Shown: positions 3 to 55,249 of the stretch, in pieces
Layout of the letters: each line of letters begins with the position of its first letter
Numbering within the stretch: the first letter of the stretch is position 1
Notes under the pieces: model-generated
Seen by the model: the letters and a program-made list of their open reading frames with translations, nothing else
Told to the model about the DNA's origin: nothing
Databases searched by the model: none
Translations under genes and position numbers: made by a program
DNA from: a virus
Reading direction: 5' to 3' (one strand)
IMG/VR virus record: IMGVR_UViG_3300027833_000017
Length of the DNA: 64,000 nucleotides

Positions 3-3000
3 TTTAATTTAATTCCTGTTGGTTTCTTTGGAAACGGTGGTGATTTAGGAGAAGCTGAATGGATAGCTTTACCAGAATGGGAAAGAGCATTAAGAATTGA
101 TCCTGCAGGAACTTACTGTGCTGCGGGTGCAACTCCAGCAAACGGTTTTACTGCCGAACAAAAAACAGCTACAGATATAGGAATATCTAATGATCCTAAT
201 GGATGTTGGGTAGAAGTATCATTATCTGGAGAAGACGGAACATCAGGTATTGATGGAGCACAAGGTGCAGACGGAACATCAGGAGTTGATGGAGCTAAAG
301 GTGATCAAGGCGACGCTGGAACATCCGGTGTTGATGGAACATCAGGTAGTAATGGTACTTCAGGTATTAATGGACTCGCTGGAACTTCAGGAAATGACGG
401 CGTTGACGGAACATCAGGAGTTGATGGAACATCAGGAAAAGATGGTAATAATGGAGAAGACGGTAATGACGGCGTTAATGGAACATCCGGTATTAATGGA
501 ACATCCGGTATTGACGGAACTTCTGGTATTAATGGAGTTAGTGGAACATCCGGTATTAATGGAACATCCGGAATTGACGGAACTTCAGGTATTAATGGAA
601 CTTCAGGTGTAGATGGCCAAGCTGGAACTTCAGGAGTTGACGGAACTTCTGGAACAGATGGAGAATCAATAGAATTTAAAACTTCATTTGATGGTCCACA
701 CTCTCTCGGTGATGACAGAAATTCTGGCGCTGATTTAGGTTCAGTAACAGTAGATACAGGTCTATCATATATTGGTGGTGAATACATTATAGTATCTTTA
801 GATGCTGGTCCTAGTAATTTCGATATAGTACAAGTAACTTCATATGATAGCTCTACTGGTGTAATGATGTGGAATAATGTTTATCAAAGTACAGTAGATT
901 CATTTAATTCTATATGGAACATTAATTTAACAGGTATACCTGGTATTAAAGGTGACGATGGAGATGTAGGCGCTGATGGTGCTGATGGTAGAGGAATTTC
1001 TTCTATTCAAATAGACGAAGATGGTAACATGTCAATTGTTTACACGAACGGCGATGGTGTTACTATACCGAATGTTGCTGGAGATGATGGAACTTCTGGT
1101 GTTGATGGAGATAATGGAACATCTGGTGTTGATGGGACTTCTGGTGTTGATGGAGATAATGGAACTTCAGGAGTTAATGGTACTTCAGGTACAACACCAA
1201 TAAAAGGTGAAGATTATGTAGATGGTGAAAACGGTACATCTGGTAAAGATGGAACGTCTGGTGTTGATGGACTTGCTGGAACATCAGGTGTTGATGGAAC
1301 TTCAGGTGTAGATGGTGAAAATGGTACATCTGGTAAAGATGGGACTTCGGGAGTTGATGGTCCACAAGGTGGAGTAGGTCCAGGTGTTAATTTTAAAGGA
1401 GAGGTTGAAGTTCAAGAACAGTTACCACAAGAAGGAAATGAACAAGGAGATGCATATATTGTACAATTAGATGATAGTTTCTGGATGTGGAATGGAACAG
1501 CGTGGATTAATGGTGGATCAATACAAGGTGCATCAGGAACTTCTGGTAAAGATGGGACTTCGGGAGTTGATGGAAATGATGGGACTTCGGGAGTTGATGG
1601 AACGTCTGGTGTTGATGGAAATGATGGGACTTCAGGAAATGATGGAACTTCGGGAGCTGATGGAACTTCAGGTACAACACCAATAAAAGGTGAAGATTAT
1701 GTAGATGGTGAAAATGGTACATCTGGTAAAGATGGGACTTCGGGAGTTGATGGAGTTAATGGAACTTCAGGTATTAGTGGAACATCAGGCGTTGATGGAA
1801 CTTCAGGTGTAGATGGTGAAAATGGTACATCTGGTAAAGATGGGACTTCGGGAAATGATGGGACTTCAGGTATTGATGGAGTTAATGGAACTTCAGGTGT
1901 AACACCAATAAAAGGTGAAGATTATGTAGATGGTGAAAATGGTACATCTGGTAAAGATGGGACTTCAGGTATTGATGGAGTTAATGGTACATCTGGAATT
2001 AATGGAACCTCTGGTATTGACGGCACATCAGGTATTGATGGAGTTAATGGTACATCTGGAATTAACGGTACATCTGGAATTAATGGAACTTCAGGTATAT
2101 CTGGAACTTCAGGTGTAACACCAATAAAAGGTGAAGATTATGTAGATGGCGAAAATGGTACATCTGGTAAAGATGGAACTTCAGGAACTAATGGATCAAG
2201 TGGATCTTCAGGAGTAACTGGTAATCCAGGAACTTCAGGTATATCTGGAACTTCAGGTAAAGATGGAACTTCTGGTGTAAGTGGAACTTCTGGTGTAAGT
2301 GGAACTTCAGGAACAGACGGTACTTCAGGTATAACACCAATAAAAGGTGAAGATTATGTAGATGGCGAAAATGGTACATCTGGTAAAGATGGAACTTCTG
2401 GAACAGATGGAACTTCAGGTGCAACACCAATAAAAGATGAAGATTATTTTGACGGTACATCTGGTAAAGATGGGACTTCAGGAACAGATGGAACGAGTGG
2501 AACTAACGGAAGTTCAGGTACTGATGGTACTTCAGGAACTAATGGAAGCTCAGGAACTGATGGAACTTCTGGTACAAACGGAACTTCAGGTATAACGCCA
2601 ATAAAAGGTGAAGATTATGTAGATGGTGAAAATGGTACATCTGGTAAAGATGGGACTTCAGGAACAGATGGAACGAGTGGAACTAACGGAAGTTCAGGTA
2701 CTGATGGTACTTCAGGAACTGATGGTAGTTCTGGTGTAAGTGGAACTTCAGGTGTAGATGGTACTTCAGGTACAACTCCAATAAAAGACGAAGATTATTT
2801 TGATGGTACATCTGGTAAAGATGGTACTTCAGGAACAGACGGAACTTCAGGTATAACGCCAATAAAAGGTGAAGATTATGTAGATGGTACTTCTGGTGTA
2901 AATGGAACTTCTGGAACTTCAGGTAAAGATGGAACTTCAGGAACTGATGGAACTTCAGGTACAGATGGAACTTCAGGAACTGATGGAACTTCAGGTACAG

Positions 3001-4175
3001 ATGGAACTTCTGGCTTAAATGGTACATCTGGTAAAGATGGAACTTCAGGTATAACGCCAATAAAAGGTGAAGATTATGTAGATGGTACTTCAGGTACAGA
3101 TGGAACTTCTGGAACTAATGGTACAAGTGGAACTAACGGAAGCTCAGGAACTGATGGAACTTCTGGAACTAATGGTACAAGTGGAACAGATGGAACTTCA
3201 GGTGCAACTCCAATAAAAGATGAAGATTATTTTGATGGTACATCTGGTAAAGATGGAACTTCAGGTACAGATGGTACTTCAGGAACTGATGGAACTTCAG
3301 GTGCAGATGGAACTTCAGGAACAGATGGAACTTCAGGAACAGACGGAACTTCAGGTGTAACACCAATAAAAGATGAAGATTATTTTGATGGTACATCTGG
3401 TAAAGATGGGACTTCAGGTACAGATGGAACGAGTGGAACAGATGGAACTTCAGGTGTAACACCAATAAAAGATGAAGATTATTTTGACGGTACATCTGGT
3501 AAAGATGGAACTTCAGGAACTAATGGATCAAGTGGAACAGATGGAACTTCAGGAACCGATGGAACTTCAGGAACCGATGGAACTTCAGGAACAGATGGTA
3601 CTTCAGGTACAACTCCAATAAAAGATGAAGATTATACAGACGGTACATCTGGTAAAGATGGGACTTCAGGAGTTAATGGAACTTCAGGAGTTAATGGAAC
3701 TTCAGGAATAAATGGAACTTCAGGAGTTAATGGTACAAGTGGAACTTCAGGTAGAAGTATTACTGGACCACGTGGAACAGGAACGTGTTTTGAGCATATA
3801 GCTCTTAATCCAGTTCCAAGAGACGTGACAATTACGAATATAGGATTACAAAAAGCATTTGTAATGGTACCATGGACATTTAAATATGAAGGATTTACGT
3901 TGAAATACATAGAATCATCATATGGTGTTACTAATAACTCTGATGCCGTAACATTTACTTTACATGGTGTAGACAGTACTGGTGGTGTTACTAACATTAC
4001 ACAATGGTCACATAATGCTAATACTAAATTTAGCGCTGCTACTATAAATACAGAAATAGACACAGACTCTAAATATTTGTATATTTCAGCTAATAGAGAA
4101 TCATATACAGGATCAGGATTTACTGCAACATTAGAATTCTTAAATAGCAGTAGTGAATGTAACCAGGAAGTGTAA
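3..4175 (+). CDS. Collagen-like (Gly-Thr-Ser/Gly-X-Asp) fibre protein, 5'-truncated
   Basis: Frame of ORF 864..4175 is open from nt 3 ([13 protein letters not shown]...). Long G-X-Y tracts interrupted by 14 TPIK(G/D)EDY(V/F/T)D motifs, one small globular insert and a C-terminal globular domain. Confidence 0.85.
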
Positions 4176-11334: not shown

Positions 11335-11335
11335 T

Positions 11336-26912: not shown

Positions 26913-26937
26913 TATAACTACTATAAACATAAAGTAA

Positions 26938-27792: not shown

Positions 27793-27793
27793 T

Positions 27794-28099
27794 ATGGAAC
27801 CACCTAAAATATACATAGATCCTCAGAGAATTTTGGCAGAAGATTTTGAAAAGGTTTTGATTTCTAAATATGATATATTTTATAGACGTATTGTCGAATA
27901 TATACTAAATATAATAGAAAACAAAGAAGAATCTAAAATACTAGCAATTCTTGTAGATGATGAAGGTAGAGAATATGATATGACATTGCCGAGAGAAGGC
28001 TACGAGAAGTCATTATTCAAAGCTAAAGAATACTTTTCAATGATAGAAGAATATGAGACGTGTGATCTAATTAAACAAATACAAAAACAAATAGCCTAA
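27794..28099 (+). CDS. Small protein with UVR-like motif
   Basis: YFSMIEEYETCDLIK; stop overlaps the clpP start. Confidence 0.6.
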   Translation: MEPPKIYIDPQRILAEDFEKVLISKYDIFYRRIVEYILNIIENKEESKILAILVDDEGREYDMTLPREGYEKSLFKAKEYFSMIEEYETCDLIKQIQKQIA

Positions 28100-29966: not shown

Positions 29967-32900
29967 ATGCCAACTGTTTCAAATCAAAACTTAATCGTAG
30001 TATTACCAGAATTAGCTAGGATAGTTAGAGGACAATCATCGAGTATTGGAATCACACTACACCAAGACCACGTAGGTAATCAACTAAACATCGGGGTAAC
30101 CGATAACGTAATCGTAGATGTTTATAATGCTGAAAATCAATTAATATATTCAGTAAGTAAATCTAATGGTACTTTATTATACGGTGCTGCAAACACTGAT
30201 TTACGAGGTGCTATATCACTTGAATTTAGTGCAGAACAAACTGCTGCATTACCATTTGGAGATTTAAATTTTCACGGTGCTATTAAATGTAAAATCACAG
30301 TAGTTAGAGGAATTACTCAAACGCAACTACCAACATTAAAACTTGCCAATATCTATGATGCTGGTGATAAAATAGGTGATATAGTTGCAAGTAGATTCAC
30401 ATTACCTGGTGCTGTATATAAAGTTAAGTCTTTAAGTTCTACAGATAAACCTGCTAGTGGAGAATTAGTTATAAATGACGAAGATCCTAATGGTGTTACT
30501 AAAATTAGAATTGCTTTAACGGACGATAAAGGATATAGAAATAATTATTTAGAGTCTATACTATTAAATAGAATTAATGTTGACGGAGTTAAAGTTTCTT
30601 TATTCTTAACCAATGTAAATAACAATAGTGAATACTCTGCATTTGAAATTAAAACATGGTCATATGTAGATGTATTAAATGTTAATCCTAATAATCCAAT
30701 AAACAACGACTCAAGTGATGCTATTGAATTACACGTACAATCAGAAGGAAATTCATTTATTCCTGGATCTGATTATAAGATCGGAGTAGGTGATGAGCTT
30801 GGTATTTTTAGCGAATCTTATTCTTCACCATCAGCTGGTATTTCAATTATACCACAAGGCGATGTAGCTATTGACGAGGTTAATAGTCTTACGTTTTCAG
30901 GAGGTGCAGTTATTAATAATTTAAATGACGGAAAAGTTGAAGTTGTTTTCCCTTCAGTAACTGTTACAACTTCTGGAACATCTGGTTCTTCAGGAATTGA
31001 TGGAACTTCAGGAATTGACGGTGCTAAAGGTGATCAAGGTGATCAAGGTCTTCAAGGTGAACAAGGTCTAAGGGGTGTCGATGGAACATCTGGTAAAGAT
31101 GGTGAAACAGGAGCACAAGGTGATATTGGTCAAGCTGGAACTTCAGGTACTGATGGAACAAGTGGAGTTGACGGAGCACAAGGTTTAAGAGGATTAGATG
31201 GAACTTCAGGTAAAGATGGTTTAGATGGAACATCTGGAATTAACGGCCAATCTGGAACTTCAGGTATTGACGGTGCTAAAGGTGATGATGGAACTTCAGG
31301 TATTGATGGAGTTGATGGAGTCAATGGAGTCAATGGAGTTGACGGAGCTAAAGGTGATCAAGGTGATCAAGGTATAGCTGGAGCTAAAGGTGATCAAGGT
31401 CTTAAAGGTGATCTAGGTAACACCGGTGTTCAAGGTAACGATGGAACGTCAGGTATTAGTGGAACATCTGGTATTGACGGAAACGATGGAGTTGACGGAA
31501 CAAGCGGAGTTAATGGAGCAGACGGTGCACAAGGTCTTAAAGGTGATCAAGGTGCAAGAGGTGTCGATGGAACATCTGGTAAAGATGGAGTTGACGGAAA
31601 CAATGGTAATGATGGAACTTCAGGTGTTTCAGGTTCTTCAGGAGTTGATGGAACATCTGGTAAAGATGGAGTTGACGGAAACAATGGAGCCAAAGGTGAT
31701 CAAGGTGATCAAGGTCTTCCAGGAAATAACGGAAACGATGGAACTTCAGGAGTTAATGGAACTTCAGGAATAAATGGAACTTCAGGAGTTGATGGAGCCA
31801 AAGGTGATCAAGGTATTACTGGTAACAATGGTGTAGATGGAACTTCTGGAATTAGTGGAACATCTGGAATTGATGGAACTTCAGGTATTAATGGAGTTGA
31901 TGGAAACGATGGAACTTCAGGAACTAATGGTTCTTCAGGAATTAATGGTCTTAAAGGAGATATTGGTCTTAAAGGAGATATTGGTGATAAAGGTGATCCT
32001 GGTAATAATGGAGTTGACGGAAACAATGGAACTTCAGGAATTAGTGGAACTTCAGGAATAAATGGAACATCTGGAATTGATGGAGTTGACGGAAACGACG
32101 GAACTTCAGGACTTTCTGGAACTTCAGGAATAAATGGAACTTCAGGAGTTGATGGAGTTAAAGGTGATCAAGGTGACGCTGGAACTTCAGGAATTAATGG
32201 AGCTAAAGGTGATCAAGGTGACGCTGGAACTTCAGGAGTTGACGGAACATCTGGAATTGACGGAGCTAAAGGTGATCAAGGTGACGCTGGAACTTCAGGA
32301 GTTAATGGAACTTCAGGAGTTGATGGAAACGATGGAACATCAGGAGTTGATGGAACTTCAGGAGTTGATGGAGCTAAAGGTGATCAAGGTGACGCTGGAA
32401 CTTCAGGAACTAATGGTTCTTCAGGAATTAATGGAACTTCAGGAGTTGATGGAAACGATGGAACATCAGGAGTTGATGGAACTTCAGGAGTTGATGGAGC
32501 TAAAGGTGATCAAGGTGACGCTGGAACTTCAGGAGTTAATGGAACTTCAGGAGTTGATGGAAACGATGGAACATCAGGAGTTGATGGAACTTCAGGAGTT
32601 GATGGAGCTAAAGGTGATCAAGGTGACGCTGGAACTTCAGGAACAAATGGTTCTTCAGGAGTTAATGGAACATCTGGAATCAATGGAGTTAAAGGTGATC
32701 AAGGTGACGCCGGAACTTCAGGTATTGATGGAGTTGACGGAGCTAATGGAGCCACTGGACCGCAAGGACCGGAAGGACCACAGGGGCCGGAAGGAGCAGC
32801 TGGAGCAAATGGATCTGGAATTGCAGGAGGAGGAACAACGGGTCAAGCACTTGTTAAATCTTCAAACGTTGATTACGAAGTTGAATGGTCAGACGTTGCA

Positions 32901-33368
32901 ACTGGATCAGGTGGAACTTATTATTGTGTAAGAGCAGAATACACTGCATCGCAAGCTTTAGGTGGGTGTGAATTTATCGATCCAAGTGGATCAGGTGTAT
33001 TTGAAACATCTAACGCATCTATAGGAACACGTGCTGGTGATAATCAAGAATTTTCATTCAGTGGTCAAAATCAACCACCGAAAGCAATTCTTGTATATGC
33101 ATATCAAGCCAACAATTCAAGATATGTTATAACGCATTTAGACGGTGGTGGTAACAACGCATCATTCTATGCACAAGGTATTACAGAATCTGCGCACTCG
33201 TCTAGTTTTAGTATTGGTAATCAAGTTACAACTGATTTATTCACTAACTTTAGTGCAGCTAAAATTAAATTAGATTTAGGTATGGGTAATATCGATGCAG
33301 TAAGAAATGCTGGTGGATTTGGTCAAACAACTAAAGAAGCTCACGCATTTATAATATTCAAATTTTAA
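29967..33368 (+). CDS. Collagen-like fibre protein with many G-X-K-G sites
   Basis: Globular N-terminus, ~620 aa G-X-Y tract ([12 protein letters not shown]), C-terminal domain. Confidence 0.85.
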   Translation: MPTVSNQNLIVVLPELARIVRGQSSSIGITLHQDHVGNQLNIGVTDNVIVDVYNAENQLIYSVSKSNGTLLYGAANTDLRGAISLEFSAEQTAALPFGDLNFHGAIKCKITVVRGITQTQLPTLKLANIYDAGDKIGDIVASRFTLPGAVYKVKSLSSTDKPASGELVINDEDPNGVTKIRIALTDDKGYRNNYLESILLNRINVDGVKVSLFLTNVNNNSEYSAFEIKTWSYVDVLNVNPNNPINNDSSDAIELHVQSEGNSFIPGSDYKIGVGDELGIFSESYSSPSAGISIIPQGDVAIDEVNSLTFSGGAVINNLNDGKVEVVFPSVTVTTSGTSGSSGIDGTSGIDGAKGDQGDQGLQGEQGLRGVDGTSGKDGETGAQGDIGQAGTSGTDGTSGVDGAQGLRGLDGTSGKDGLDGTSGINGQSGTSGIDGAKGDDGTSGIDGVDGVNGVNGVDGAKGDQGDQGIAGAKGDQGLKGDLGNTGVQGNDGTSGISGTSGIDGNDGVDGTSGVNGADGAQGLKGDQGARGVDGTSGKDGVDGNNGNDGTSGVSGSSGVDGTSGKDGVDGNNGAKGDQGDQGLPGNNGNDGTSGVNGTSGINGTSGVDGAKGDQGITGNNGVDGTSGISGTSGIDGTSGINGVDGNDGTSGTNGSSGINGLKGDIGLKGDIGDKGDPGNNGVDGNNGTSGISGTSGINGTSGIDGVDGNDGTSGLSGTSGINGTSGVDGVKGDQGDAGTSGINGAKGDQGDAGTSGVDGTSGIDGAKGDQGDAGTSGVNGTSGVDGNDGTSGVDGTSGVDGAKGDQGDAGTSGTNGSSGINGTSGVDGNDGTSGVDGTSGVDGAKGDQGDAGTSGVNGTSGVDGNDGTSGVDGTSGVDGAKGDQGDAGTSGTNGSSGVNGTSGINGVKGDQGDAGTSGIDGVDGANGATGPQGPEGPQGPEGAAGANGSGIAGGGTTGQALVKSSNVDYEVEWSDVATGSGGTYYCVRAEYTASQALGGCEFIDPSGSGVFETSNASIGTRAGDNQEFSFSGQNQPPKAILVYAYQANNSRYVITHLDGGGNNASFYAQGITESAHSSSFSIGNQVTTDLFTNFSAAKIKLDLGMGNIDAVRNAGGFGQTTKEAHAFIIFKF

Positions 33369-38646: not shown

Positions 38647-41370
38647 ATGTCTCAATTGAAACTAAAACAAATACTTGACTTTTTATCTTCTTCACCAGCA
38701 ACAGGTGAAGTATTGTCATATAATGCAAGTACCGGAAAGTATGAAAACCAACAATTACCAAATACGTTTGGACTTCCTTATGTTTATAATAACGCAACAA
38801 ATCCCACGACAGTTTCTTCTGGTGATTTAGCGTTTGATAACCCTAGTAATCCTAGTAAAATAATTGTAAGTGAAACTAATGCTAGAGGTGGTTCAGCAAC
38901 CGTAACATTAAATGCTGCAGTCGCTTCATCTAATAATTATAAATCTATTATTGTATTAGCAAAATCAACTGATGGTAATGCAAATAAATCATTCTATGTA
39001 ACAGGAAACACAACTGCTTCTGGACAAAGAACATTTAACTTACAACCTATTTCAAGTTCTAATTGGAATAATGTTAGTGATAATGATTCTTTATTTATGT
39101 TTATTCAACCTATTGGTGATGTTGGAACATCAGGAACTTCGGGATCAAATGGATCAAGTGGAAGTTCAGGAACTGATGGAACGAGTGGTGTAAGTGGGAC
39201 TTCAGGTTCTTCGGGAACAAACGGTTCAAGTGGAAGTTCAGGAACTAACGGAACTTCAGGAACCGATGGAACTTCAGGATCAAGTGGATCAAGTGGAAGT
39301 TCAGGAACTGATGGTACTAGTGGAACTAACGGAACTTCAGGAACGGATGGTTCTAGTGGATCTTCAGGAACGGATGGAACAAGTGGAGTTGATGGTGTTA
39401 AAGGTGACAATTATAGTGGAGCAACTTTATCTGGAAATAATTTAATATTAACTCATTCTCAAAATGGCAATGAAATTGTAGGTAGAGTAGTATATGTTGG
39501 AACATCAGGAACTGATGGATCAAGCGGAAGTTCAGGTTCAAGCGGATCTTCAGGAATTACAGGTACAATTGCAGTAGGAACAGTATCTACTGGATTAGAA
39601 AATACACCGGTAAGTGTTACTAATACTGGAACCTCAACTGCAGCTGAATTTGATTTTACTATTCCTGTTGGTGCAACTGGAGCAAAAGGTAATCCTGGAA
39701 CTCCAGCAATTAATGGAACTAACGGATCTTCTGGATCGAGCGGTGTTAAAGGACAAAAAGGAGCTCCAGGTACAAGCGGTACTGATGGAACTTCAGGAAC
39801 GAATGGAACTTCAGGAACGAATGGAACAAATGGAAGTTCGGGTTCAAGCGGTTCTTCAGGAACTGATGGAACTTCAGGAACGAATGGAACTTCAGGAACG
39901 AATGGAACTTCAGGAACTGACGGATCAAGTGGAACTTCAGGAACTGATGGAAGTTCAGGAACTGATGGAACTTCAGGAACGAATGGAACATCAGGGACTA
40001 ACGGATCAAGTGGATCTTCAGGTTCAAGTGGAAGTTCAGGAACTGATGGAACTTCAGGAACTGATGGAACTTCAGGAACGAATGGAACTTCAGGAACGAA
40101 TGGAAGTTCAGGTTCTTCAGGAACTGACGGTACAAGTGGAACAAACGGAAGTTCAGGAACTGATGGAACTAGCGGTATCAATGGTACAAGTGGAACGAAT
40201 GGAACAAACGGAAGTTCGGGTTCTTCAGGAACGAATGGAACAAACGGATCTTCTGGATCAAGTGGATCTTCAGGTGCACAAGGTAATCCAGGTTGGGGTG
40301 TTTCAATGCAAGGACAAGTAGCTACATCATCAAATTTACCAACAAGTGGTAATTCTGACGGTGATGCATATATAGTACAGTCAGACGATTCTCTTTGGGT
40401 ATTTACACAAGCAGATGGTTGGATTGGAGGTGGTTCTATTCAAGGACCAGCTGGTTCTTCAGGGACTAATGGAACAAATGGAAGTTCAGGTTCTTCAGGA
40501 ACTGATGGAAGTTCAGGTTCAAGTGGAAGTTCAGGAACTGATGGAACTTCAGGAACTAACGGAACTTCAGGAACCGATGGAACTTCAGGATCAAGTGGAT
40601 CAAGTGGAAGTTCAGGAACTGATGGAACGTCTGGTACAAATGGTACAAGTGGAACGAATGGTACAAGCGGATCTTCAGGTTCAAGCGGAAGTTCAGGAAC
40701 TGACGGTACTAGTGGAACTAACGGAACTTCAGGTTCTTCAGGAACTGATGGAACTAGTGGAACAAACGGAACTTCAGGTTCAAGTGGATCTAGCGGTTCT
40801 TCAGGAACGAATGGAACTTCAGGAACGAATGGAACTTCAGGAACGAATGGAACTTCAGGAACAAACGGAAGTTCGGGTTCTTCAGGAACGAATGGAACTA
40901 ACGGATCTTCTGGATCAAGTGGTTCTTCAGGTTCTTCAGGTTTAAAAGGTAATACTGGTACTTCTAATACCTATGCAACTGCAATGAATCAACATACAAA
41001 AACTGATTCAAATGTTGAGCATCATGATTTATATTTAACAGGTGCTTTAAAAAGAAATATTATATCGGTTAACGGCGTTGGAGGTGTTTATGACATTAAG
41101 CCTAAACTAGGTGACGCATTTGCATTTACAGCAACGGGATTAATTGATATTACAATGTCTAACATAGGTAACGACAACATAGGTCAATCTGGAACTATAG
41201 TAATTCATAACGGTGCAGGTGCAGGATACAATCCATTACCATCTTATATGAAAACACCCTCAGGTGCTGACATTCAATGGGTAACTACTCCTGGTGCAGT
41301 ATCTATTATATCATATATTATAATAGATGTTGACGCAGTATTAGTTAACTACATTGGAAATTTTGCGTAA
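38647..41370 (+). CDS. Collagen-like (GTS/GSS/GTN) fibre protein
   Basis: Long G-X-Y tracts; FDFTIPVG hinge; GDAYIVQSDDSLW insert shared with the 3..4175 protein. Confidence 0.85.
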   Translation: MSQLKLKQILDFLSSSPATGEVLSYNASTGKYENQQLPNTFGLPYVYNNATNPTTVSSGDLAFDNPSNPSKIIVSETNARGGSATVTLNAAVASSNNYKSIIVLAKSTDGNANKSFYVTGNTTASGQRTFNLQPISSSNWNNVSDNDSLFMFIQPIGDVGTSGTSGSNGSSGSSGTDGTSGVSGTSGSSGTNGSSGSSGTNGTSGTDGTSGSSGSSGSSGTDGTSGTNGTSGTDGSSGSSGTDGTSGVDGVKGDNYSGATLSGNNLILTHSQNGNEIVGRVVYVGTSGTDGSSGSSGSSGSSGITGTIAVGTVSTGLENTPVSVTNTGTSTAAEFDFTIPVGATGAKGNPGTPAINGTNGSSGSSGVKGQKGAPGTSGTDGTSGTNGTSGTNGTNGSSGSSGSSGTDGTSGTNGTSGTNGTSGTDGSSGTSGTDGSSGTDGTSGTNGTSGTNGSSGSSGSSGSSGTDGTSGTDGTSGTNGTSGTNGSSGSSGTDGTSGTNGSSGTDGTSGINGTSGTNGTNGSSGSSGTNGTNGSSGSSGSSGAQGNPGWGVSMQGQVATSSNLPTSGNSDGDAYIVQSDDSLWVFTQADGWIGGGSIQGPAGSSGTNGTNGSSGSSGTDGSSGSSGSSGTDGTSGTNGTSGTDGTSGSSGSSGSSGTDGTSGTNGTSGTNGTSGSSGSSGSSGTDGTSGTNGTSGSSGTDGTSGTNGTSGSSGSSGSSGTNGTSGTNGTSGTNGTSGTNGSSGSSGTNGTNGSSGSSGSSGSSGLKGNTGTSNTYATAMNQHTKTDSNVEHHDLYLTGALKRNIISVNGVGGVYDIKPKLGDAFAFTATGLIDITMSNIGNDNIGQSGTIVIHNGAGAGYNPLPSYMKTPSGADIQWVTTPGAVSIISYIIIDVDAVLVNYIGNFA

Positions 41371-44300: not shown

Positions 44301-44758
44301 GAGCATTTAATACAGATGACATGACTGTATTACCAACAATTAGGGAAGAAGAAGTATACACAAATACATTATCTAATGAACATAGTATTGCCGGTATTTG
44401 GAGAGCAGACGTTATAGGAACAGTTAGTATAAATAATGACCAATTAAGAACTACCATGGCACATATACATATTATAAAAAGAGATGGTATGTGGCAAGCA
44501 AAACTAGCGGAGCACCTAGAGATTGGTGATGTTATGTTTAAAATGAATTATGGAGAATTTTTGATAGAATCTTTAGAAATAGATGAAGTTAATCAATATA
44601 CTGTTTATAAATTAGATGTAGAAGCTAATGATACATTCTTTGCAAATGGAATTTTAACACATAATAACAAAGAAGAACCGTGTGAGCCAGGTGATGCTTG
44701 TGATCCGCGTTCTATATGTTATTCTGAGCGTGACTGTGAGATGGAAGGTATAAAATAA
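41396..44758 (+). CDS. Giant Thr-rich repeat protein A with C-terminal Hint domain
   Basis: Aromatic/basic tetrad repeats aa 62-873; Hint CIVEGT (44207) to FFANGILTHN (44665); Cys-rich tail. Confidence 0.85.
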   Translation: MKNIGFSRIDFWSTGSAQNTSKGTLVAKNTTWATSKTTSENRNTSRTTNKVRNTSQSTVTTWITTWATSKSTTTTFNTSRSTNTVYATSRSTTTSWTTSWSTSRETSLETDRTTTTTWSTSKNTSQSTERATTTTWTTSWTTSQSTLYPVETTWNTSQSTSRSTTTSYITYWTTSWNTSKSTTTSYITTYTTSWSTNRSTTTVYNTTWITSQTTTRSTNRSTTTTFNTNQSTSRSTTTTYNTTWITSQTTSRTTEHSTTTTFSTSQSTSRSTTTTYNTTWLTSQTTSKVTSKSTTTTFNTSQSTSKSTVTTWTTTWSTSKSTSTTTTKSTTTTFNTSQSTSKSTVTTWTTTWSTSKSTSKATSKNTTTTWVTSRGTEHSTTTTFTTTWSTSKSTTTTFDTAWTTSWNTTRSTNRSTTTTFNTSQSTSHTTTTAWTTTWVTSRGTNRGTSRNTTTTFATSRSTEHTTTTTFNTTWSTSKSTTTTWTTTFGTTFNTSQSTTKSTTTTFNTTWSTSKSTTTSWTTSWNTTVLTSKSTSKNTTTTFNTTWSTSKSTTTTFATSKSTTTTFNTTQSTSKSTTTQWNTTKATTTTWNTTKETTTVYNTSWNTTKSTTTTWNTTKSTTTTWNTSQSTTTTFKTTWNTTKSTTTVYNTTKSTTTTWNTSQSTTTVFNTSWNTTRSTTTSFNTTKSTTTTWSTSQSTEHSTTTTFATSKSTTTTWNTTKATTTVYNTSWNTTKSTTTTFNTTKSTTTTFGTSQGTTRNTTTTFATSKSTTTTWSTSRSTEHSTTTTFATSKSTTTTWSTSKSTTTAWTTYWITSRNTTTTFATSRSTTTTFATSRSTTTTYTTTFSTSKSTNTRFNTSRVTDRNTSQSTITKVSTGYSRSTTKATSWITLVPADNSSGGGAGLLTSWNTSVSYITSYNTAVYVNTSRGTYRNTLAECIVEGTLVHIAEGIQRPVEALVYGQSILTMDGAFNTDDMTVLPTIREEEVYTNTLSNEHSIAGIWRADVIGTVSINNDQLRTTMAHIHIIKRDGMWQAKLAEHLEIGDVMFKMNYGEFLIESLEIDEVNQYTVYKLDVEANDTFFANGILTHNNKEEPCEPGDACDPRSICYSERDCEMEGIK

Positions 44759-44812
44759 GGTATAAAATGATTAAAGAATTTAAATATATAAAAAAACAAC
44801 AGAGATAGAGCT

Positions 44813-47635
44813 ATGCCTACTACTTTTTTTAATACTACTTGGTTAACCGCTGGATCTAGGAGCACGTTGAAGACGACTAGCTTTTCTCGAACAACTTCAT
44901 TATACACGTCATATAATAGGGCAACTTCTAGGAATACGGCAAAAACTACCTATTGGAATGTACTTACAGATAAATCTACTTCAACGGGGTGGACAACTAA
45001 AGTTACTACGACATGGTTCACAGATAAAAATACGACGACGACATATAATACAAGTAAGAGTACATCTAAGGCGACTACGACGACGTGGAATACATCTAAG
45101 GCGACTACGACGACGTGGAATACATCTAGAACAACCGAAACAAAGTGGAACACAAGTCAAGCTACATCTAGGGCGACAACAACAACATTTAATACAACAC
45201 GTGCAACCACGACTACATATAACACAACACGTGCAACCACGACTACATATAACACATCTTGGAATACATCACGCGCAACTACAACGACGTGGAACACAAC
45301 TAAAACAACGTTAACTTCGTGGACTACTTCGTGGAATACAACACGTGCAACCACAACAACATTTTCAACTAGTAGATCAACAACGACTACATTTAGTACA
45401 AGTCAGTCAACGGAGCATTCTACCACGACTACGTGGGCAACTAGTAAAGCAACAACGACGACGTGGAACACAACTAAAACAACAACGACTGTATACAATA
45501 CATCTTGGAATACAACTAAATCGACAACAACAACATGGTTAACTAGTAAAGCAACAACGACTACGTTTAGTACAAGTCAGTCAACGGAGCGTACAACCAC
45601 GACTACGTGGGCAACTAGTAAATCGACAACGACTACGTATAATACGTCTAAATCTACTACAACTACATTTGCAACTAGTAAGAATACAACGCGTACAACC
45701 ACGACTACGTGGGCAACTAGTAAATCGACAACGACTACGTTTAATACGTCTAAATCTACTACAACAACATTTATAACTAGTCAAAGCACAGAGCATACGA
45801 CAACAACTACGTTTAATACTAGTAAATCTACTACAACGACGTTTATAACTAGTAAATCTACTACAACTAATTGGACTACAAAATGGTCAACTAGTAAATC
45901 TACTACAACGACATGGAACACAACTAAAGCAACAACGACTACATGGAATACAAGTCAGTCAACTAGCAAATCCACTGTAACTACATGGACAACTTACTGG
46001 AACACCGTAAGAGGAACTAGTAGAGGAACTAATAAATCTACAACGACAACTTTTAATACAAGCCAGTCAACGAGTAAATCGACTACGACAACATTTACGA
46101 CAACCTGGTCAACATCAAGAAATACAACTAGATCAACTAGTAAATCGACTACGACAACATTTAATACAAGTCAGTCAACTTCTAGGTCAACTACTACGGT
46201 TTATAACACATCATGGAACACAACTAAAACAACGTTAACTTCGTGGACTACTTCATGGACTACCTCTTGGAACACAACCAGAGGCACGAATAAAACCACA
46301 ACAACAGTTTACAATACAACGTGGTCAACTAGCAAATCCACTGTAACTACATTTAATACTACTTGGATAACATCGCAAAATACAAAGAGATCTACTTCTA
46401 GAACAACGACTACTACTTTTAATACAAGTCAGTCAACTTCTAGGTCAACGACTACGTCCTATAACACATCTTGGAATACTACATTAATAACTGGAACTGT
46501 ATGGATTACATCGTGGGTGACAACGTTTAATACTAATCAGTCAACGACTAAATCTACAACAACTACATTTAATACAACGTGGTCAACTAGTAGAGCTACG
46601 ACGACGAGTTATACTACCTCATGGACAACGACGTTTAATACTAATCAGTCAACGACTAAATCTACAACAACTACATTTAATACAACGTGGTCAACTAGTA
46701 GAGCTACGACGACGAGTTATACTACCTCATGGACAACTTCATGGAACACGACTAGAGGAACAGAGCATGTGACTACTACAGTTTTTAACACATCATGGAA
46801 TACGACTAGAGCAACGACTACAGTTTACAATACATCATGGACAACTTCATGGAACACGACTAGAGGAACAGAACATTCAACAACGACTACGTTTACAACA
46901 ACATGGTCAACAAGTAAATCTACAGTAACTACGTTCAATACTTCATGGACTACTTCATGGAATACAACTAGGTCAACAGAGCATTCAACTACGACTACGT
47001 TTAATACGTCCCAGTCTACGAATCATGGAACGTCTCATTCGACAGTAACTATATGGAGTACATCCAGGGGAACTAATAGGGGAACAGAACATGCAACGAC
47101 AACTACATGGACAACAACTTGGGAAACTAGTAGAATTACAAACTATACGCGTACAACATCGTGGACTACACAATATCAAACTAGTAAGTCAACTATAACT
47201 ACATTTAATACAACTTGGTTGACAACGTTTAATACTAATCAGTCAACGACAACTTCATGGACTACATCATGGGTGACAACATTTAATACGTCTCAAACAA
47301 CGTCTAAAACGACTACGACTACATTTAATACAAGTCACTCGACTACGACCACATTTAATACGACTAGATCAACTACGACTACATTTAATACAAATGCAGC
47401 GACATCTAAATCGACAACGACTATATGGTCAACTATCTATAGTGTTACTACTTCGTGGAATACCGCATGGAACACAACAACAACGTGGAACACAACGAGA
47501 TCTACAACAAGTGCTATTACTACAACGTGGAGTACAGATTACGAAGTACAAGAAACTTGGTATTCAACTAACGAACCACTAAATGTTTATAATACAAATA
47601 GACAATGGAGAGTAAACAGTTATAATGGTAACTAG
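44813..47635 (+). CDS. Giant Thr-rich repeat protein B (mirror partner of A)
   Basis: Same tetrad grammar aa 60-871, in reversed and complemented order relative to A. Confidence 0.85.
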   Translation: MPTTFFNTTWLTAGSRSTLKTTSFSRTTSLYTSYNRATSRNTAKTTYWNVLTDKSTSTGWTTKVTTTWFTDKNTTTTYNTSKSTSKATTTTWNTSKATTTTWNTSRTTETKWNTSQATSRATTTTFNTTRATTTTYNTTRATTTTYNTSWNTSRATTTTWNTTKTTLTSWTTSWNTTRATTTTFSTSRSTTTTFSTSQSTEHSTTTTWATSKATTTTWNTTKTTTTVYNTSWNTTKSTTTTWLTSKATTTTFSTSQSTERTTTTTWATSKSTTTTYNTSKSTTTTFATSKNTTRTTTTTWATSKSTTTTFNTSKSTTTTFITSQSTEHTTTTTFNTSKSTTTTFITSKSTTTNWTTKWSTSKSTTTTWNTTKATTTTWNTSQSTSKSTVTTWTTYWNTVRGTSRGTNKSTTTTFNTSQSTSKSTTTTFTTTWSTSRNTTRSTSKSTTTTFNTSQSTSRSTTTVYNTSWNTTKTTLTSWTTSWTTSWNTTRGTNKTTTTVYNTTWSTSKSTVTTFNTTWITSQNTKRSTSRTTTTTFNTSQSTSRSTTTSYNTSWNTTLITGTVWITSWVTTFNTNQSTTKSTTTTFNTTWSTSRATTTSYTTSWTTTFNTNQSTTKSTTTTFNTTWSTSRATTTSYTTSWTTSWNTTRGTEHVTTTVFNTSWNTTRATTTVYNTSWTTSWNTTRGTEHSTTTTFTTTWSTSKSTVTTFNTSWTTSWNTTRSTEHSTTTTFNTSQSTNHGTSHSTVTIWSTSRGTNRGTEHATTTTWTTTWETSRITNYTRTTSWTTQYQTSKSTITTFNTTWLTTFNTNQSTTTSWTTSWVTTFNTSQTTSKTTTTTFNTSHSTTTTFNTTRSTTTTFNTNAATSKSTTTIWSTIYSVTTSWNTAWNTTTTWNTTRSTTSAITTTWSTDYEVQETWYSTNEPLNVYNTNRQWRVNSYNGN

Positions 47636-47758: not shown

Positions 47759-48670
47759 ATGGAAATGTTTAACAAAAAGGTGCTAAATGAAAGAATTGGG
47801 CCGCTAAAGAAAAATACAAAACTAGAACCACTCGAACAAGTGGAACGATATGTTTTAAGAAAATGTAGAGAACTAGGATTAGAACACAGTTATGATGTTA
47901 TAGCAGAAGAAATGCCGTACTTTAAAACAATGGGATATACAGAATATGCTACTTGTTTTTTAATGCAACCACTAAATCTCAAAATGAGAAGAGAACAAAT
48001 TGCTGATGCTTTAGTACATGATGTCGAACACGTCTATGATTGGGTATCTTACTTTAAAGAAAATATCGAAAAAGATCAAGCTAATAAATATCAAAATCGC
48101 AAGAAAGATTTCGACAGATATGAAGATAAAAGCACTTTGGTTATTTTACCAGGTTCAAATAAGCTTAAAGAAAATTGTTGTTTAAATAAATTAATTGAAG
48201 TTGCTGAGAAACATAAAGGTGATGTTTATTTTAAACCACATCCTATTACTACACATGCAGTTATAGGTGAAATTAAAGATTTATTTGGTGAAGAATCTAT
48301 TTTACCAAGAGACATAGATCTTTATTACTTTTTACAAAAAGCTAAAACAGTATATAGTACACACATTAGTGAAAGCGCATTATATTCTGTTGTTCTTGAA
48401 AAAGAAGTTTATCCAATGGATGTGTGGAATAATATAAGCAGAGGATCTTTTTATACTATAAACTCTAGTCTTTATGATAATAAAGAAAGCGGTGCAGAAT
48501 GGATTAATCAAGTTTTTTCTAGTTACAAATCTGGAATTATAAATCCAGCAATTGATGAAGATTGGAAGGGCAAAGTGGATGATTACATGAATTATATCTA
48601 TGAAAAAAGAGAATATTATAAGGGTTGGTTTATAGACGCTCCACCTAAAGTTAAAAGAAATAAGAACTAA
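47759..48670 (+). CDS. Putative GT-B glycosyltransferase with HP motif (KpsS/KpsC-like)
   Basis: YFKPHP ... LQKAKTVYSTHISESALYSVVLEKEV resembles the capsule-synthesis C-terminal motif. Confidence 0.45.
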   Translation: MEMFNKKVLNERIGPLKKNTKLEPLEQVERYVLRKCRELGLEHSYDVIAEEMPYFKTMGYTEYATCFLMQPLNLKMRREQIADALVHDVEHVYDWVSYFKENIEKDQANKYQNRKKDFDRYEDKSTLVILPGSNKLKENCCLNKLIEVAEKHKGDVYFKPHPITTHAVIGEIKDLFGEESILPRDIDLYYFLQKAKTVYSTHISESALYSVVLEKEVYPMDVWNNISRGSFYTINSSLYDNKESGAEWINQVFSSYKSGIINPAIDEDWKGKVDDYMNYIYEKREYYKGWFIDAPPKVKRNKN

Positions 48671-48718: not shown

Positions 48719-49738
48719 ATGAGAATATTATTTTATGCGGGTTATCAAAAAAACAAATTTGATAGCAATACCAGTATTGGATTAGCAGGAACTGAAATTG
48801 CTATAATTAATATAGCTAAAGAGATAGTTAAATTTGGTTATAAGGTTGTGGTTTCTGGTGAAGTAAAAGATTCTGGTTTAATTGATGGTGTAGAATGGAT
48901 ATCAACACATAATGTTCATGAAAAATATTTTGATCAGTTTGATTATATTATATCTGCAAGTTATATCCATTTTCTAAAAGAGTTTGAAGGGTATTCAGCA
49001 AAGAAAGTATTTTGGGCACATAATACACATCATCACCCATGGTGGAATCACAAAGTGTTAGGAGACGCAAACCTTTTAATACAACGAGTTGATCATACAA
49101 TTTGTTTGACTAATTGGCATAAGAATCATTGGGCACACACATATAATATACCTTTAAATAAAATCTCAGTGATTGGTAATGCCATTGATCCTTCGACATT
49201 TAATGGTACTCCTGAAAAAATAAAAGGTAAATTCATATATAGTTCTGCACCTGAACGTGGCTTATTAGAATTATTAAAAAACTGGCCAAAGATAAAAGAT
49301 ATAATGCCACATGCAACATTAGACATATATTCTCCAGGCTATTCTATAGCAAATCATACTGACTATTCATTTAATAAGTTTGAAGAAGTTACGTGTCATG
49401 GTACAGTAGATCAAGAAACATTACACGCTGCAATGTTACGTGCAGAATATTGGTGTTATGTAACTGATTATGAAGAAACATATTGTATTACTGCGCTTGA
49501 AATGCAATATGCCAAAGTATTACCTATTGTTACCAAGGTAGCAGCCTTAAAAGAGACTGTAAATAGTGGAGTTATCTTAGAAAGAAATGAAACAAATTGG
49601 AATCAGGTTATACAAATACTAGGTACACTAAGTAGTGGACTTAAAGATAAATCAATTAATGATGCTTATAAATGGTCTAAACAACAAACATGGAATGCCA
49701 GATCATATGATTGGAAAAACATATTAGAATCTATATGA
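48719..49738 (+). CDS. GT4-like glycosyltransferase
   Basis: GLAGTE, YSSAPERGL, EETYCITALEMQ, AALKETV. Confidence 0.8.
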   Translation: MRILFYAGYQKNKFDSNTSIGLAGTEIAIINIAKEIVKFGYKVVVSGEVKDSGLIDGVEWISTHNVHEKYFDQFDYIISASYIHFLKEFEGYSAKKVFWAHNTHHHPWWNHKVLGDANLLIQRVDHTICLTNWHKNHWAHTYNIPLNKISVIGNAIDPSTFNGTPEKIKGKFIYSSAPERGLLELLKNWPKIKDIMPHATLDIYSPGYSIANHTDYSFNKFEEVTCHGTVDQETLHAAMLRAEYWCYVTDYEETYCITALEMQYAKVLPIVTKVAALKETVNSGVILERNETNWNQVIQILGTLSSGLKDKSINDAYKWSKQQTWNARSYDWKNILESI

Positions 49739-51066
49739 AAATAGATAAAATTTATATTATAAGTTTGAATGCCGGAGATCCAAGTATTCAGAGAAACATT
49801 GCCACCAGGGTAGATCAACTTGGTATGCCATATTCTGTAGAATGGGAAATAGTTCAAGGTTTTGATGGAACTTCAGGTAATTTATTAGATGGACATAGTG
49901 TATATAATTTATGGAATTTAGGATCTGATTCATGGAATGATTGGTGGAAAAGAGATGTTACTGGTGGAGAAGCAGGTTGTGCAATTAGTCACTTAAGTAT
50001 ATGGAACAATATAATAGAAAACAATGTCAATTGTGCATTAATATTAGAAGATGATTTTGTTTCAGTAGCTCCGCTTACAAATCCAGTTATTCCAAATACA
50101 GAATGGGATATTGCATTTTTAGGTAGAAATGCTATATGTTCTAAGGATGAAAAAAGAATTGATGCAAGTAATAAATGGGTAACAGCTCTTAGTAGTTATA
50201 ATACACACGCGTATGTAATTAAAAGAGACACTGCAAAAATCCTAGTCAATGATTATAACTTTAAACAAAATCTAATTGCACCCGACGAATTCTTAACAGC
50301 AACATATACAGAGCATAGAAGACAAGATATTAATATACTGTTTCCACCAAAACTTAAAGCGATAGCTCCAGTTGATAATTGGATAGAACAAAATAGACCG
50401 CATGAACAATCTATGACAGAACCACATGATGCGAATATTAATTTATTGAAAACACAACCGTATTTCGAAATATTAGATGATAGTGATTGGGATTCATGGA
50501 AATCAAAATATGTAAACGAAACGGTGTCTAAGGGTGAATATGATTTAATGGTAGATGATATAGGAAATAATATTTATGAGTTTCCATTATTTACAGAAAA
50601 ATTCTGTAAAGAAGCCGTAGGTTTGGCAGAAGTTATGGATAAATGGACAAAAGACAGACACGAATTTTATCCAACAAACGATGTCTTATTACCAGAAATA
50701 GGATTAGATCATATTTATAATAGAGTTGTAAGAGAAATAGTTTCTCCTCTTTGTATACATTTATGGGAATTAGAAGGTGCAGGTTGGGACAATATGGATA
50801 CTGAAAACTTTATGGTAAGATACACTACTGATAGACAATCTCATTTAAGTTTACATCACGACTTTAGTCATATTACAATGGTAGTAAAATTAAACGATGA
50901 GTTTGATGGAGGCGGTACATGGTTTCCAAAATATAAAATATTATCAAATCCAAAATTAGTGGGCACTGCAACCATTCACCCAGGAATGATTACACATAAA
51001 CATGGTGCCAGACCAATACACAGTGGGAAAAGATACATTAATGTATCATTTATGAGAAAGAAATAA
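49735..51066 (+). CDS. GT25 (collagen galactosyltransferase-like) + PLOD-type lysyl hydroxylase fusion
   Basis: N-half: IYIISL, GEAGCAISH..IW, LILEDD, WDIAFLGR, AYVI, DEFL. C-half: FPLFTEKFC, NFMVRY..Q.HL..HHD, GGGT.F, HPG.ITH.H, G.RYI.VSF. Confidence 0.8.
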   Translation: MKIDKIYIISLNAGDPSIQRNIATRVDQLGMPYSVEWEIVQGFDGTSGNLLDGHSVYNLWNLGSDSWNDWWKRDVTGGEAGCAISHLSIWNNIIENNVNCALILEDDFVSVAPLTNPVIPNTEWDIAFLGRNAICSKDEKRIDASNKWVTALSSYNTHAYVIKRDTAKILVNDYNFKQNLIAPDEFLTATYTEHRRQDINILFPPKLKAIAPVDNWIEQNRPHEQSMTEPHDANINLLKTQPYFEILDDSDWDSWKSKYVNETVSKGEYDLMVDDIGNNIYEFPLFTEKFCKEAVGLAEVMDKWTKDRHEFYPTNDVLLPEIGLDHIYNRVVREIVSPLCIHLWELEGAGWDNMDTENFMVRYTTDRQSHLSLHHDFSHITMVVKLNDEFDGGGTWFPKYKILSNPKLVGTATIHPGMITHKHGARPIHSGKRYINVSFMRKK

Positions 51067-51081
51067 TTAATAAAAAATAAT

Positions 51082-51510
51082 ATGAAAAAAGAGATTACAT
51101 TTAACGAGATCGTTGGAGATGATGGGCATTTAGTATCACCCGTTTTAAAGAATGGTGCTAAGAATTATTTAATTGATATTGACGGTACAATTACAGATGA
51201 TGTACCAAACGAAGAGCCAGAAAGAATGTCAATAGTTTTACCATATGAAGGATCTGTAGAAACACTTAATAGATGGTATGACGAAGGACATGTTGTAACT
51301 TTCTTTACTTCAAGAACTGAAGGCGTAAGAGAGATTACAGAAACTTGGCTAAATAAACATGGTTTTAAATATCATGGACTATTAATGGGAAAACCAAGAG
51401 GTGGTAATTATCATTGGGTTGACAACCATATTGTTAAGGGTACAAGATATGAAGGTAAATGGGCAGACCTGGTTAGAGAAGAAAGAACGATAGAAGTATT
51501 TCCTTCGTAG
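51082..51510 (+). CDS. HAD-superfamily phosphatase
   Basis: LIDIDGT, FFTSR, LLMGKPRG, WVDN. Confidence 0.8.
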   Translation: MKKEITFNEIVGDDGHLVSPVLKNGAKNYLIDIDGTITDDVPNEEPERMSIVLPYEGSVETLNRWYDEGHVVTFFTSRTEGVREITETWLNKHGFKYHGLLMGKPRGGNYHWVDNHIVKGTRYEGKWADLVREERTIEVFPS

Positions 51511-51521
51511 ATATATATTAA

Positions 51522-52454
51522 ATGAGAAGTATATACACATTTAAGGATTTTCTTTTAGAAGCTGATGAAAATGATCAACTTAAAAAAATCTGCATCGCAG
51601 TTTCTGTAGAAATGCCAGATAATAAATATGTGTATGATTCTAAATATAATGTCTCAAAGGTATTTGAATTATTAGATAAAAATAAAAAAGCAGAACCTTC
51701 TGAAATTCCAGTTCTTAATTATGCTAATTGGAAAATTGAGAAAATGATAAATGATGGATGGGATTCTAAATTTATTTATAATTCAATTGAAGCTAAACAA
51801 AGAGTTTCTTCCAAAGTAAAATGGTGTAAGACTCATGAAAAATCTAAACATACGCCTAAAGTAGTTTTTGATAAATCAAATTTAAAAGAACTTAAATATC
51901 CTATTATAGCTAAACCAGATAACAGATATAGCGGCCAGGGTATTATGGTTTTTAAAGAAGAAAAAGATTTAGAAGGCGTTGATTTAGATCAGTTTTCAGT
52001 TTTCTCAGAAAAGATAAATATCGTAAATGAACTTAGAATTTATTGTTGGAAAGGAAAACCTTTGATGTTAGTATATAGAGTGCCTGCAAACGAAGAAACA
52101 AAAAACCTATCTAAAAAAGCGGATGATAAACTAGTATTTAATTACGAATTATCAAAATCACCTATAACAGAAAATTTAGTTGGTGTTGTTGAAGAATTTT
52201 CAAAAGAACACAATGATTTAGATTTTTATTCAGTAGATATTGTTATAGATGATAAAGATCATCCTTATGTTATTGAAATGTCATCAGAACCTGGACCAGT
52301 ATTTGGTGTTATGGGACATGTATATAAAGAAATGTATAAAGACTATTACGGAGAAGATATTTCAGATAAAACTAAAAAAATAATTGACGCTTATATAGAA
52401 GAGGATATTAATACAACGATTGCTTCAGATGAATCTAGATTCAAAAGAAGATAA
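51522..52454 (+). CDS. ATP-grasp (RimK-like) protein
   Basis: YPIIAKP..YSGQGI, ELRIY, SVDIV..YVIEMSSEPG. Confidence 0.65.
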   Translation: MRSIYTFKDFLLEADENDQLKKICIAVSVEMPDNKYVYDSKYNVSKVFELLDKNKKAEPSEIPVLNYANWKIEKMINDGWDSKFIYNSIEAKQRVSSKVKWCKTHEKSKHTPKVVFDKSNLKELKYPIIAKPDNRYSGQGIMVFKEEKDLEGVDLDQFSVFSEKINIVNELRIYCWKGKPLMLVYRVPANEETKNLSKKADDKLVFNYELSKSPITENLVGVVEEFSKEHNDLDFYSVDIVIDDKDHPYVIEMSSEPGPVFGVMGHVYKEMYKDYYGEDISDKTKKIIDAYIEEDINTTIASDESRFKRR

Positions 52455-55029: not shown

Positions 55030-55249
55030 AATAGCAAAAGAAATAGCATTTCAATTAAAAAGAATAGCAGACGCATTAGAAAAATCTAATAAAAATTCGG
55101 AAACATCTGAAAAAAGAAATGCTGTTATTGGCAAACTTCAAGAAAAAAATCTAAAAGCAGATCTGAGAGAAAAACTTAATTTAGATCAAGCAGATTACAC
55201 ACCACATCCTAATTCTCCTAGATTTAAAACAGATGATGGATCCTTATAG
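55019..55249 (+). CDS. Hypothetical protein
   Basis: QLKRIADALEK coiled segment. Confidence 0.55.
   Translation: MEDKIAKEIAFQLKRIADALEKSNKNSETSEKRNAVIGKLQEKNLKADLREKLNLDQADYTPHPNSPRFKTDDGSL

Follow-up and report, generated by a model that had tools for sequence, protein, structure and literature searches.

A two-domain enzyme gene in a viral sequence

IMG/VR virus record IMGVR_UViG_3300027833_000017 is represented here by a stretch of 64,000 nucleotides, referred to in its full length as the window. The gene at 49735-51066 was proposed earlier, from the letters alone, to encode a glycosyltransferase of family 25 (GT25) fused to a PLOD-type lysyl hydroxylase (LH) that acts on phage fibres; this proposal is called the original prediction below. 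The open reading frame (ORF) is intact, encodes two domains and has exactly the boundaries that had been assigned to it: its ATG overlaps the stop codon of the upstream gene for a GT4 glycosyltransferase (ATGA), and its homologues begin with the same M-K-I-D-K-I-Y as the window protein. An alternative TTG start is possible eight codons upstream. The proposed fusion was borne out by homology, by predicted fold and by catalytic residues. A model calculated with AlphaFold2 (AF2) on the basis of 27 homologues had a mean predicted local distance difference test score (pLDDT) of 88.6 and consisted of two well-folded domains, joined by a linker (residues 231-240) that varies in length among the homologues. 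All conservation figures given here refer to the alignment of these 27 homologues, in which identity goes down to 28%. The coordinates of the features are listed in Table 1.

The N-terminal half matched PF01755 (GT25) in Pfam over residues 4-108 with an E value of 8e-16 (58.9 bits versus a cutoff of 24). Residues 33-198 could be aligned with the catalytic domain of human COLGALT1 at an E value of 1.6e-9, whereas a bacterial GT25 protein reached 6e-3 over 45 residues only. The same order was obtained when the model was searched with Foldseek, which returned COLGALT1 (9evk) at 1e-14 with a GT-A fold and a root-mean-square deviation (rmsd) of 3.0 Å, and bacterial GT25 at 5e-7. The putative DxD motif, E105-D106-D107, was aligned with F-E-D-D of COLGALT1; E105 and D107 are invariant, and D106 alternates with Glu. 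The enzyme has a single GT domain, which aligns to the catalytic part at the C-terminus of COLGALT1 (residues about 325-496), and thus differs from the COLGALT architecture of two GT domains, a non-catalytic GT1 and a catalytic GT2. The original prediction had named this half a galactosyltransferase. The family assignment stood; galactose is not established by it, because the GT25-like domain of mimivirus L230 uses UDP-glucose and transfers glucose (PMC9614988), so that the donor sugar is not inferable from GT25 membership.

The C-terminal half gave a sub-threshold OGFOD2-like match only in Pfam. In a search against solved structures, residues 253-440 matched the LH domain of L230 (6ax6) with an E value of 1.8e-28, and the C-terminal half matched human LH3 with 1e-22. 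In Foldseek, the model was superimposed on 6ax6 with a template modelling (TM) score of 0.87 and an rmsd of 1.9 Å over 202 columns with 36% identity. LH3 was found at 1e-23 and lysyl hydroxylases overall at 1e-18 to 1e-23, prolyl hydroxylases at about 1e-6 only. In L230, H825, D827 and H877 form the Fe(II) triad, Y814 and R887 bind 2-oxoglutarate (2OG), and the dimer-forming L873 is needed for activity on whole collagen (PMC5802723). With these residue roles, counting along the HMMER alignment to 6ax6 mapped the triad to H374/D376/H423 and the 2OG ligands to Y363/R433 of the phage enzyme, each of which is at least 90% conserved. The motifs quoted in the original prediction coincide with the conserved ones: G81-C82..S85-H86, E105-D106-D107, D184-E185-F, H374-H375-D376, H415-P416-G417, H421.H423 and R433-Y434. 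Since the catalytic positions, D106 excepted, are invariant or at least 90% conserved, both halves look catalytically competent.

A quick maximum-likelihood tree of 140 LH domains, which was unrooted and contained no animal sequences, grouped the window protein with other compact GT25-LH forms. It was placed outside a clade of 39 proteins with L230 architecture (Shimodaira-Hasegawa-like approximate likelihood ratio test value of 99); relatives with this architecture, such as P0272, carry PF25342 GT_PLOD and form this separate clade. The deeper nodes of the tree were unresolved, and as it had neither a root nor animal sequences, no direction of transfer was drawn.

Table 1. Positions of the enzyme gene, its domains and other features in the window
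Feature	Position	Strand	Basis or remark
Bifunctional enzyme gene, GT25 + PLOD/L230-type lysyl hydroxylase	49735..51066	+	443 amino acids (aa); homology, alignment, AF2 model
GT25 (COLGALT-like) GT-A domain	49735..50424	+	Residues 1-230; PF01755, COLGALT1 alignment
Putative DxD motif E105-D106-D107	50047-50055	+	Aligned to COLGALT1 F-E-D-D
Interdomain linker, disordered	50425..50454	+	Residues 231-240; pLDDT < 50 in AF2 model
Lysyl hydroxylase domain (2OG/Fe(II) double-stranded beta-helix)	50467..51063	+	Residues 245-443; L230 alignment, Foldseek
Fe triad H374, D376, H423; 2OG ligands Y363, R433	50854 (H374), 50860 (D376), 51001 (H423), 51031 (R433)	+	Mapped from L230
GT4 (GT-B) glycosyltransferase	48719..49738	+	Pfam Glyco_transf_4, Glycos_transf_1; ATGA overlap with enzyme gene
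HAD-type phosphatase, downstream neighbour	51082..51510	+	Pfam; kept in T4-like subgroup
ATP-grasp ligase (R2K / sugar-transfer-associated type), neighbour	51522..52454	+	Pfam
colB, collagen-like fibre protein, best candidate substrate	29967..33368	+	1133 aa; triplet count; G003 homologue
colA, collagen-like, 5'-truncated by window edge	3..4175	+	Triplet count
colC, collagen-like	38647..41370	+	907 aa, 164 triplets; triplet count

Viral relatives and conserved gene neighbourhood

The enzyme family is large. Our search returned 364 clusters at 90% identity among proteins of similar length, some located on contigs as long as about 250 kb, and in a 50%-identity library 2347 cluster representatives were matched at E <= 1e-3. 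Family members are named by JGI as 'GR25 family glycosyltransferase involved in LPS biosynthesis' (LPS, lipopolysaccharide). Among the best 150 representatives, 44 consisted of LH alone, 34 of GT25+LH, about 28 of GT25+PLOD-GT+LH as in L230, and 23 of GT4+GT25+LH. No cultured close relative was found by tblastn of the enzyme among GenBank phages, where only partial matches of ~30% identity were obtained in Synechococcus and Roseobacter phages. Homologues were also present in GTDB: in Cytophagales isolates (Dawidia, Parachryseolinea, Chryseosolibacter; L087, L089, L090, L102), large chromosomal contigs encode full-length GT25-LH proteins of ~30% identity, and stand-alone LH proteins occur in Thiothrix, Leucothrix and others, such as that of Thiothrix fructosivorans (L097) with ~46% identity. 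The term 'eukaryote-style' of the original prediction is therefore overstated for a family that is large in uncultured phages and also found in bacterial chromosomes.

We then considered the neighbourhood of the gene in 82 IMG/VR loci of relatives. A collagen-like ORF was present upstream on the same strand in 38 of the 47 loci whose upstream flank extends over 8 kb or more, and downstream in 2 of 54. The upstream arrangement was retained after clustering by LH identity (21 of 27 clusters at 90%, 11 of 14 at 70%), and three of five records that had no collagen nearby contained collagen repeats elsewhere on the contig. In the pooled non-redundant neighbour collagens, Lys was the commonest residue at Y of the G-X-Y triplets (28%) and near zero at X; in individual ORFs it occupied up to 55% of the Y positions.

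A GT4 homologue was located directly upstream of the GT25-LH gene, or fused to it, in 66 of the 82 related loci, and relatives with all three domains (GT4+GT25+LH) in a single chain exist. On this ground the module probably consists of LH, GT25 and GT4, and the addition of a second sugar is the likely, predicted role of GT4. The original prediction spoke of a single-polypeptide pathway; this holds for GT25 and LH, which are joined in one chain, and probably not for the whole, as GT4 is translationally coupled in the window and fused in many relatives. HAD homologues stood beside the enzyme in 14 of the 82 loci and ATP-grasp homologues in 19. An ATP-grasp gene follows the enzyme in the window and also a stand-alone LH in a very different locus (L079, 10617-11570), which points to an additional modification step associated with the module.

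The gene order in L079 is collagen, DUF6445, GT2, stand-alone LH and ATP-grasp, and in another locus, L062, it is collagen, LamG lectin, DUF6445 and a 770-aa GT4-GT25-LH protein. In these two distant locus types, DUF6445 (L062, 8397-8960; L079, 7171-8103) is thus situated between a giant Lys-rich collagen and the GT/LH genes and may belong to the module as a further conserved component.

Collagen-like and Thr-rich fibre genes of the window

Three collagen-like genes (colA, colB and colC) were found in the window, with about 35 X-Lys-Gly sites altogether. The colB protein contains one uninterrupted run of 205 G-X-Y triplets with Lys 18 times at Y, which agrees with the 'about 18' of the original prediction, and four times at X; GAKGDQ (10 times) is the commonest site, beside GLKGD and GVKGDQ. 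Its N-terminal non-collagen domain has a homologue in a related phage, G003 (E 5e-22). This homologue is a 1170-aa collagen with 23 Lys at Y, and its gene is located directly upstream of the GT4 and GT25-LH genes. The ancestral order therefore seems to be a colB-type collagen, then GT4, then GT25-LH.

The collagen of colA contains eight P-I-K-G-E-D motifs at periodic helix breaks. A non-collagen insert of near-identical sequence, T-P-I-K-G/D-E-D-Y-V/F-D-G, interrupts it every ~40-60 residues, giving a strictly periodic segmented triple helix. Pfam gave no match for the terminal domains of the collagens or for ORF 47759-48670.

Two adjacent fibre genes at 41396-47635, immediately upstream of the enzyme region, encode Thr-rich proteins (37-44% Thr) with 88 Lys, mostly in S-K-S or T-K-S. 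The C-terminal region of the first one showed weak, sub-threshold Hint/intein-like matches (E 0.004-0.009).

Comparison with known enzymes

The closest known enzyme is L230 of mimivirus, and the phage protein is a compact, half-length variant of the L230/PLOD-COLGALT system. In L230, residues 1-194 form a GT25-like N-terminal domain with 28% identity to GLT25D1, and residues 537-895 a PLOD-like C-terminal domain (PMC9614988); the enzyme hydroxylates Lys of collagen peptides and adds glucose, not galactose (Luther et al. 2011, cited in PMC9614988). Like L230, the phage enzyme combines both domains in the same order in one viral polypeptide, with the same Fe triad and 2OG ligands and 36% identity of the LH domains. 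Both viruses encode their own Pro-poor collagen-like proteins, and both enzymes were annotated as 'LPS biosynthesis'. Unlike L230 (895 aa), the phage enzyme lacks the middle PLOD-GT/accessory region, in place of which it has the 10-residue linker, and its partner is a GT4 of the GT-B type, coupled to it in the window and fused to it in relatives. It belongs to a tailed bacteriophage and not to a giant virus of amoebae, and its activity is predicted, whereas that of L230 is proven.

The same two modules act in human LH3/PLOD3 and COLGALT1 (GLT25D1), which convert Lys to hydroxylysine and then to hexosyl-hydroxylysine in a non-covalent assembly, the procollagen lysine O-glycosylation complex (PDB 8zgc). 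The phage fusion, like the triple fusions, corresponds to a covalent form of this complex. In contrast to the human proteins, the phage enzyme has no signal peptide, no endoplasmic reticulum context, no PLOD GT and accessory domains and no counterpart of the non-catalytic first GT domain of COLGALT1. The second sugar is added by a PLOD-type GT-A domain in animals (LH3) and by R699 in mimivirus; the phage candidate is the non-homologous GT4. PBCV-1 vCPH and the prolyl 4-hydroxylase (P4H) of Bacillus anthracis are likewise dioxygenases of the 2OG/Fe(II) type whose targets are collagen-like repeats outside animals, but they belong to a different subfamily (about 1e-6 in Foldseek) and have a different target residue.

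In the literature covered by our search, which left most subscription journals outside, no report of a lysyl hydroxylase or of hydroxylysine in phages or bacteria, nor of hydroxylysine glycosylation in a bacteriophage, was found, and L230 was the only documented case of hydroxylysine glycosylation outside animals. Hydroxylysine chemistry is presented as confined to animals and mimivirus in a review on the collagens of prokaryotes (PMC8968730).

Proposed function and alternative explanations

Homology, fold, catalytic residues, the synteny with collagens carrying Lys at Y and the T4-type capsids of relatives (see below) support the core of the original prediction, a GT25 and PLOD-type LH enzyme acting on collagen fibres of the phage. 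From these sequence-based data we consider it probable that the enzyme hydroxylates and glycosylates Lys residues of the phage's own collagen-like fibres in the cytoplasm of the infected bacterium. Lysyl hydroxylation is feasible in a bacterial cytoplasm, as L230 hydroxylates the mimivirus collagen L71 when both are co-expressed in Escherichia coli (PMC9546862). According to this proposal, the C-terminal Fe(II)/2OG domain would hydroxylate Lys in X-Lys-Gly of new, not yet trimerised fibre chains, with the colB product as the main candidate substrate. The N-terminal GT25 domain would move a hexose, glucose or galactose, from a UDP-sugar onto hydroxylysine, and the co-translated GT4 would probably add the second sugar. 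The expected product would be fibres whose hydroxylysine is O-glycosylated, like that of animal collagen and of the mimivirus fibrils. What we infer here is the substrate, the sequence of the steps, the sugars and how the phage would benefit (through solubility or stability of the fibres, resistance to proteases or recognition of the host).

Several observations weigh against this proposal. The original prediction placed G-X-K-G collagens nearby; collagens are indeed present in the window, but the nearest one, colC, has Lys at Y in only 4 of its 164 triplets, and the Lys-rich colB is located 16 kb upstream of the enzyme; the intervening stretch of about 14 kb contains other fibre genes, a DUF2827 gene, colC and the two Thr-rich fibre genes. 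The collagen of colA is also poor in Lys at Y (2 in 296 triplets) and carries 19 Lys at X (G-K-D-G). In colA and colB, K-G is followed by D or E at 29 of 30 sites; this K-G-D/E motif is also the classic ion pair that stabilises triple helices free of hydroxyproline. Lys at Y could thus have been selected for reasons other than hydroxylation and is not, alone, evidence of it. In the enzyme itself, the residue corresponding to the dimerisation residue Leu873 of L230 is Ile419, hydrophobic but not Leu, and the predicted template modelling score (pTM) of 0.54 of the AF2 model leaves the relative orientation of the two domains uncertain. Finally, of 40 loci fetched from GTDB genomes, 39 had a bacterial context, and 38 of these 39 contained no collagen-like ORF within 10 kb; the remaining one of the 40 was a probable phage contig, with collagens, binned in a metagenome-assembled genome of Flavobacteriaceae. 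The bacterial neighbours inspected (Dawidia soli, Thiothrix) were housekeeping genes that gave no clue to the substrate. The link between the family and collagen is therefore not universal. At the same time these loci serve as a rough negative control for collagen neighbours that occur by chance.

The absence of collagen neighbours in bacteria also favours the alternative that the enzyme modifies Lys of other proteins, instead of or besides the collagens, either in the Thr-rich pair or in host proteins, which we regard as unlikely. The Thr-rich proteins are encoded closer to the enzyme than any Lys-rich collagen, and Ser is the next residue after 48 of their 88 Lys, Ala after 9. Sites of this form, X-Lys-Ser/Ala, are the telopeptide-type targets of animal LH2. 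L230 in turn has telopeptidyl LH activity (PMC5802723, PMC9546862). The neighbour that is conserved across distant viral relatives is, however, a collagen-like gene and not a Thr-rich one, and in G003 it is the colB-type collagen that lies right next to the enzyme genes.

Another alternative, to which we give still less weight, is that only one activity is exerted, namely, formation of hydroxylysine for cross-linking or stability with GT25 as a structural or binding module, or hydroxylation of a non-protein substrate. The stand-alone LH found beside collagens with a different GT (GT2) in L079-type loci and the LH-only architecture of 44 of the 150 best cluster representatives would fit such a role. 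As the GT25 motifs G-C..S-H, E-D-D and D-E-F are (nearly) invariant down to 28% identity, an enzymatic role of GT25 appears to be retained.

It is very improbable that GT25 is an LPS/O-antigen glycosyltransferase that remodels the host surface, with the dioxygenase in an unrelated role, since the JGI name, the KDO-pathway and other sugar genes of the window and the reading of glycosyltransferases in pelagimyophage tail-fibre hypervariable regions as host O-chain modifiers (PMC7029224) are set against the closer similarity of GT25 to COLGALT1 than to bacterial GT25, its covalent fusion to a protein-lysine hydroxylase throughout the family, the strong synteny with collagens and the initial mis-annotation of L230 itself as an LPS enzyme (PMC9546862).

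A more far-reaching version of the proposed fibre modification is that tailed T4-like marine phages encode all enzymes of their own collagen maturation pathway in the bacterial cytoplasm, LH, GT25, GT4 and possibly ATP-grasp and HAD, which would yield a hydroxylysine-linked di- or oligosaccharide on tail fibres and would use a GT-B enzyme for the second sugar that is non-homologous to the animal and mimivirus ones. We put this forward tentatively and hold it to be possible, if rather doubtful.

In textbooks, the formation of hydroxylysine and its O-glycosylation count as hallmarks of animal collagen. If tailed phages modify their fibres in this way, hydroxylysine glycosylation would be a widespread trait of prokaryotic viruses and not a speciality of animals and giant viruses, and with 364 clusters and 2347 representatives this chemistry would be common in the ocean virosphere. 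In marine myophages, many tail-fibre-region glycosyltransferases regarded as 'LPS-modifying' would then be re-read as virion- or fibre-modifying, and there would be a bearing on the origin of the PLOD/COLGALT system. The small enzymes, which by analogy to L230 may express well in bacteria, could serve to produce modified recombinant collagens.

Phage nature and further genes of the window

The window is densely packed with genes, mostly on one strand, among them genes for PhoH, RNase H, thymidylate synthases, ClpP, a Lon-like protease and DnaJ; no tRNA genes were found in it. A megablast search with 10 kb gave no useful match, and tblastn with the Lon-like protease and PhoH mostly returned metagenomic records, headed by two metagenomic megaphages. 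A major capsid gene of the T4 gp23 type was present on four of five large viral contigs with enzyme relatives, including a 187-kb record estimated to be 98% complete, and was absent from the nearest record, G001, a 74-kb IMG/VR fragment estimated to be 27% complete. Because contigs of relatives encode a gp23-type capsid, the window is assigned to a large marine T4-like bacteriophage, for its own genome indirectly, via the contigs of these relatives.

The regions 20517-21458, 24897-28788 and 55233-56039 contain two thymidylate-synthase-family genes, one of which possibly encodes a deoxynucleoside monophosphate hydroxymethylase, as well as genes for the Lon-like protease, ClpP and a full DnaJ, a protease/chaperone set that is unusually rich for a phage. 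Sugar-related genes are located at 7245-12220, 22176-23827 and 36740-37951 and encode an FkbM methyltransferase, an HtrL/YibB-like protein, an NAD-dependent epimerase (possibly a UDP-sugar 4-epimerase), a KpsF-like SIS isomerase, a CMP-KDO-synthetase-like cytidylyltransferase and a DUF2827 protein. The sugar-metabolism genes of the window might supply or extend the fibre glycans.

A PF11397 'GlcNAc' glycosyltransferase (7245-8492, E 3e-73) and a P4H-type 2OG-FeII_Oxy_3 dioxygenase (23824-24390, E 8e-11) are also encoded in the window. The Skp1 hydroxyproline GlcNAc-transferase belongs to PF11397. The two genes are unlinked in the window and its collagens are Pro-poor; the encoded enzymes could form a second hydroxylate-then-glycosylate pair, acting on Pro.

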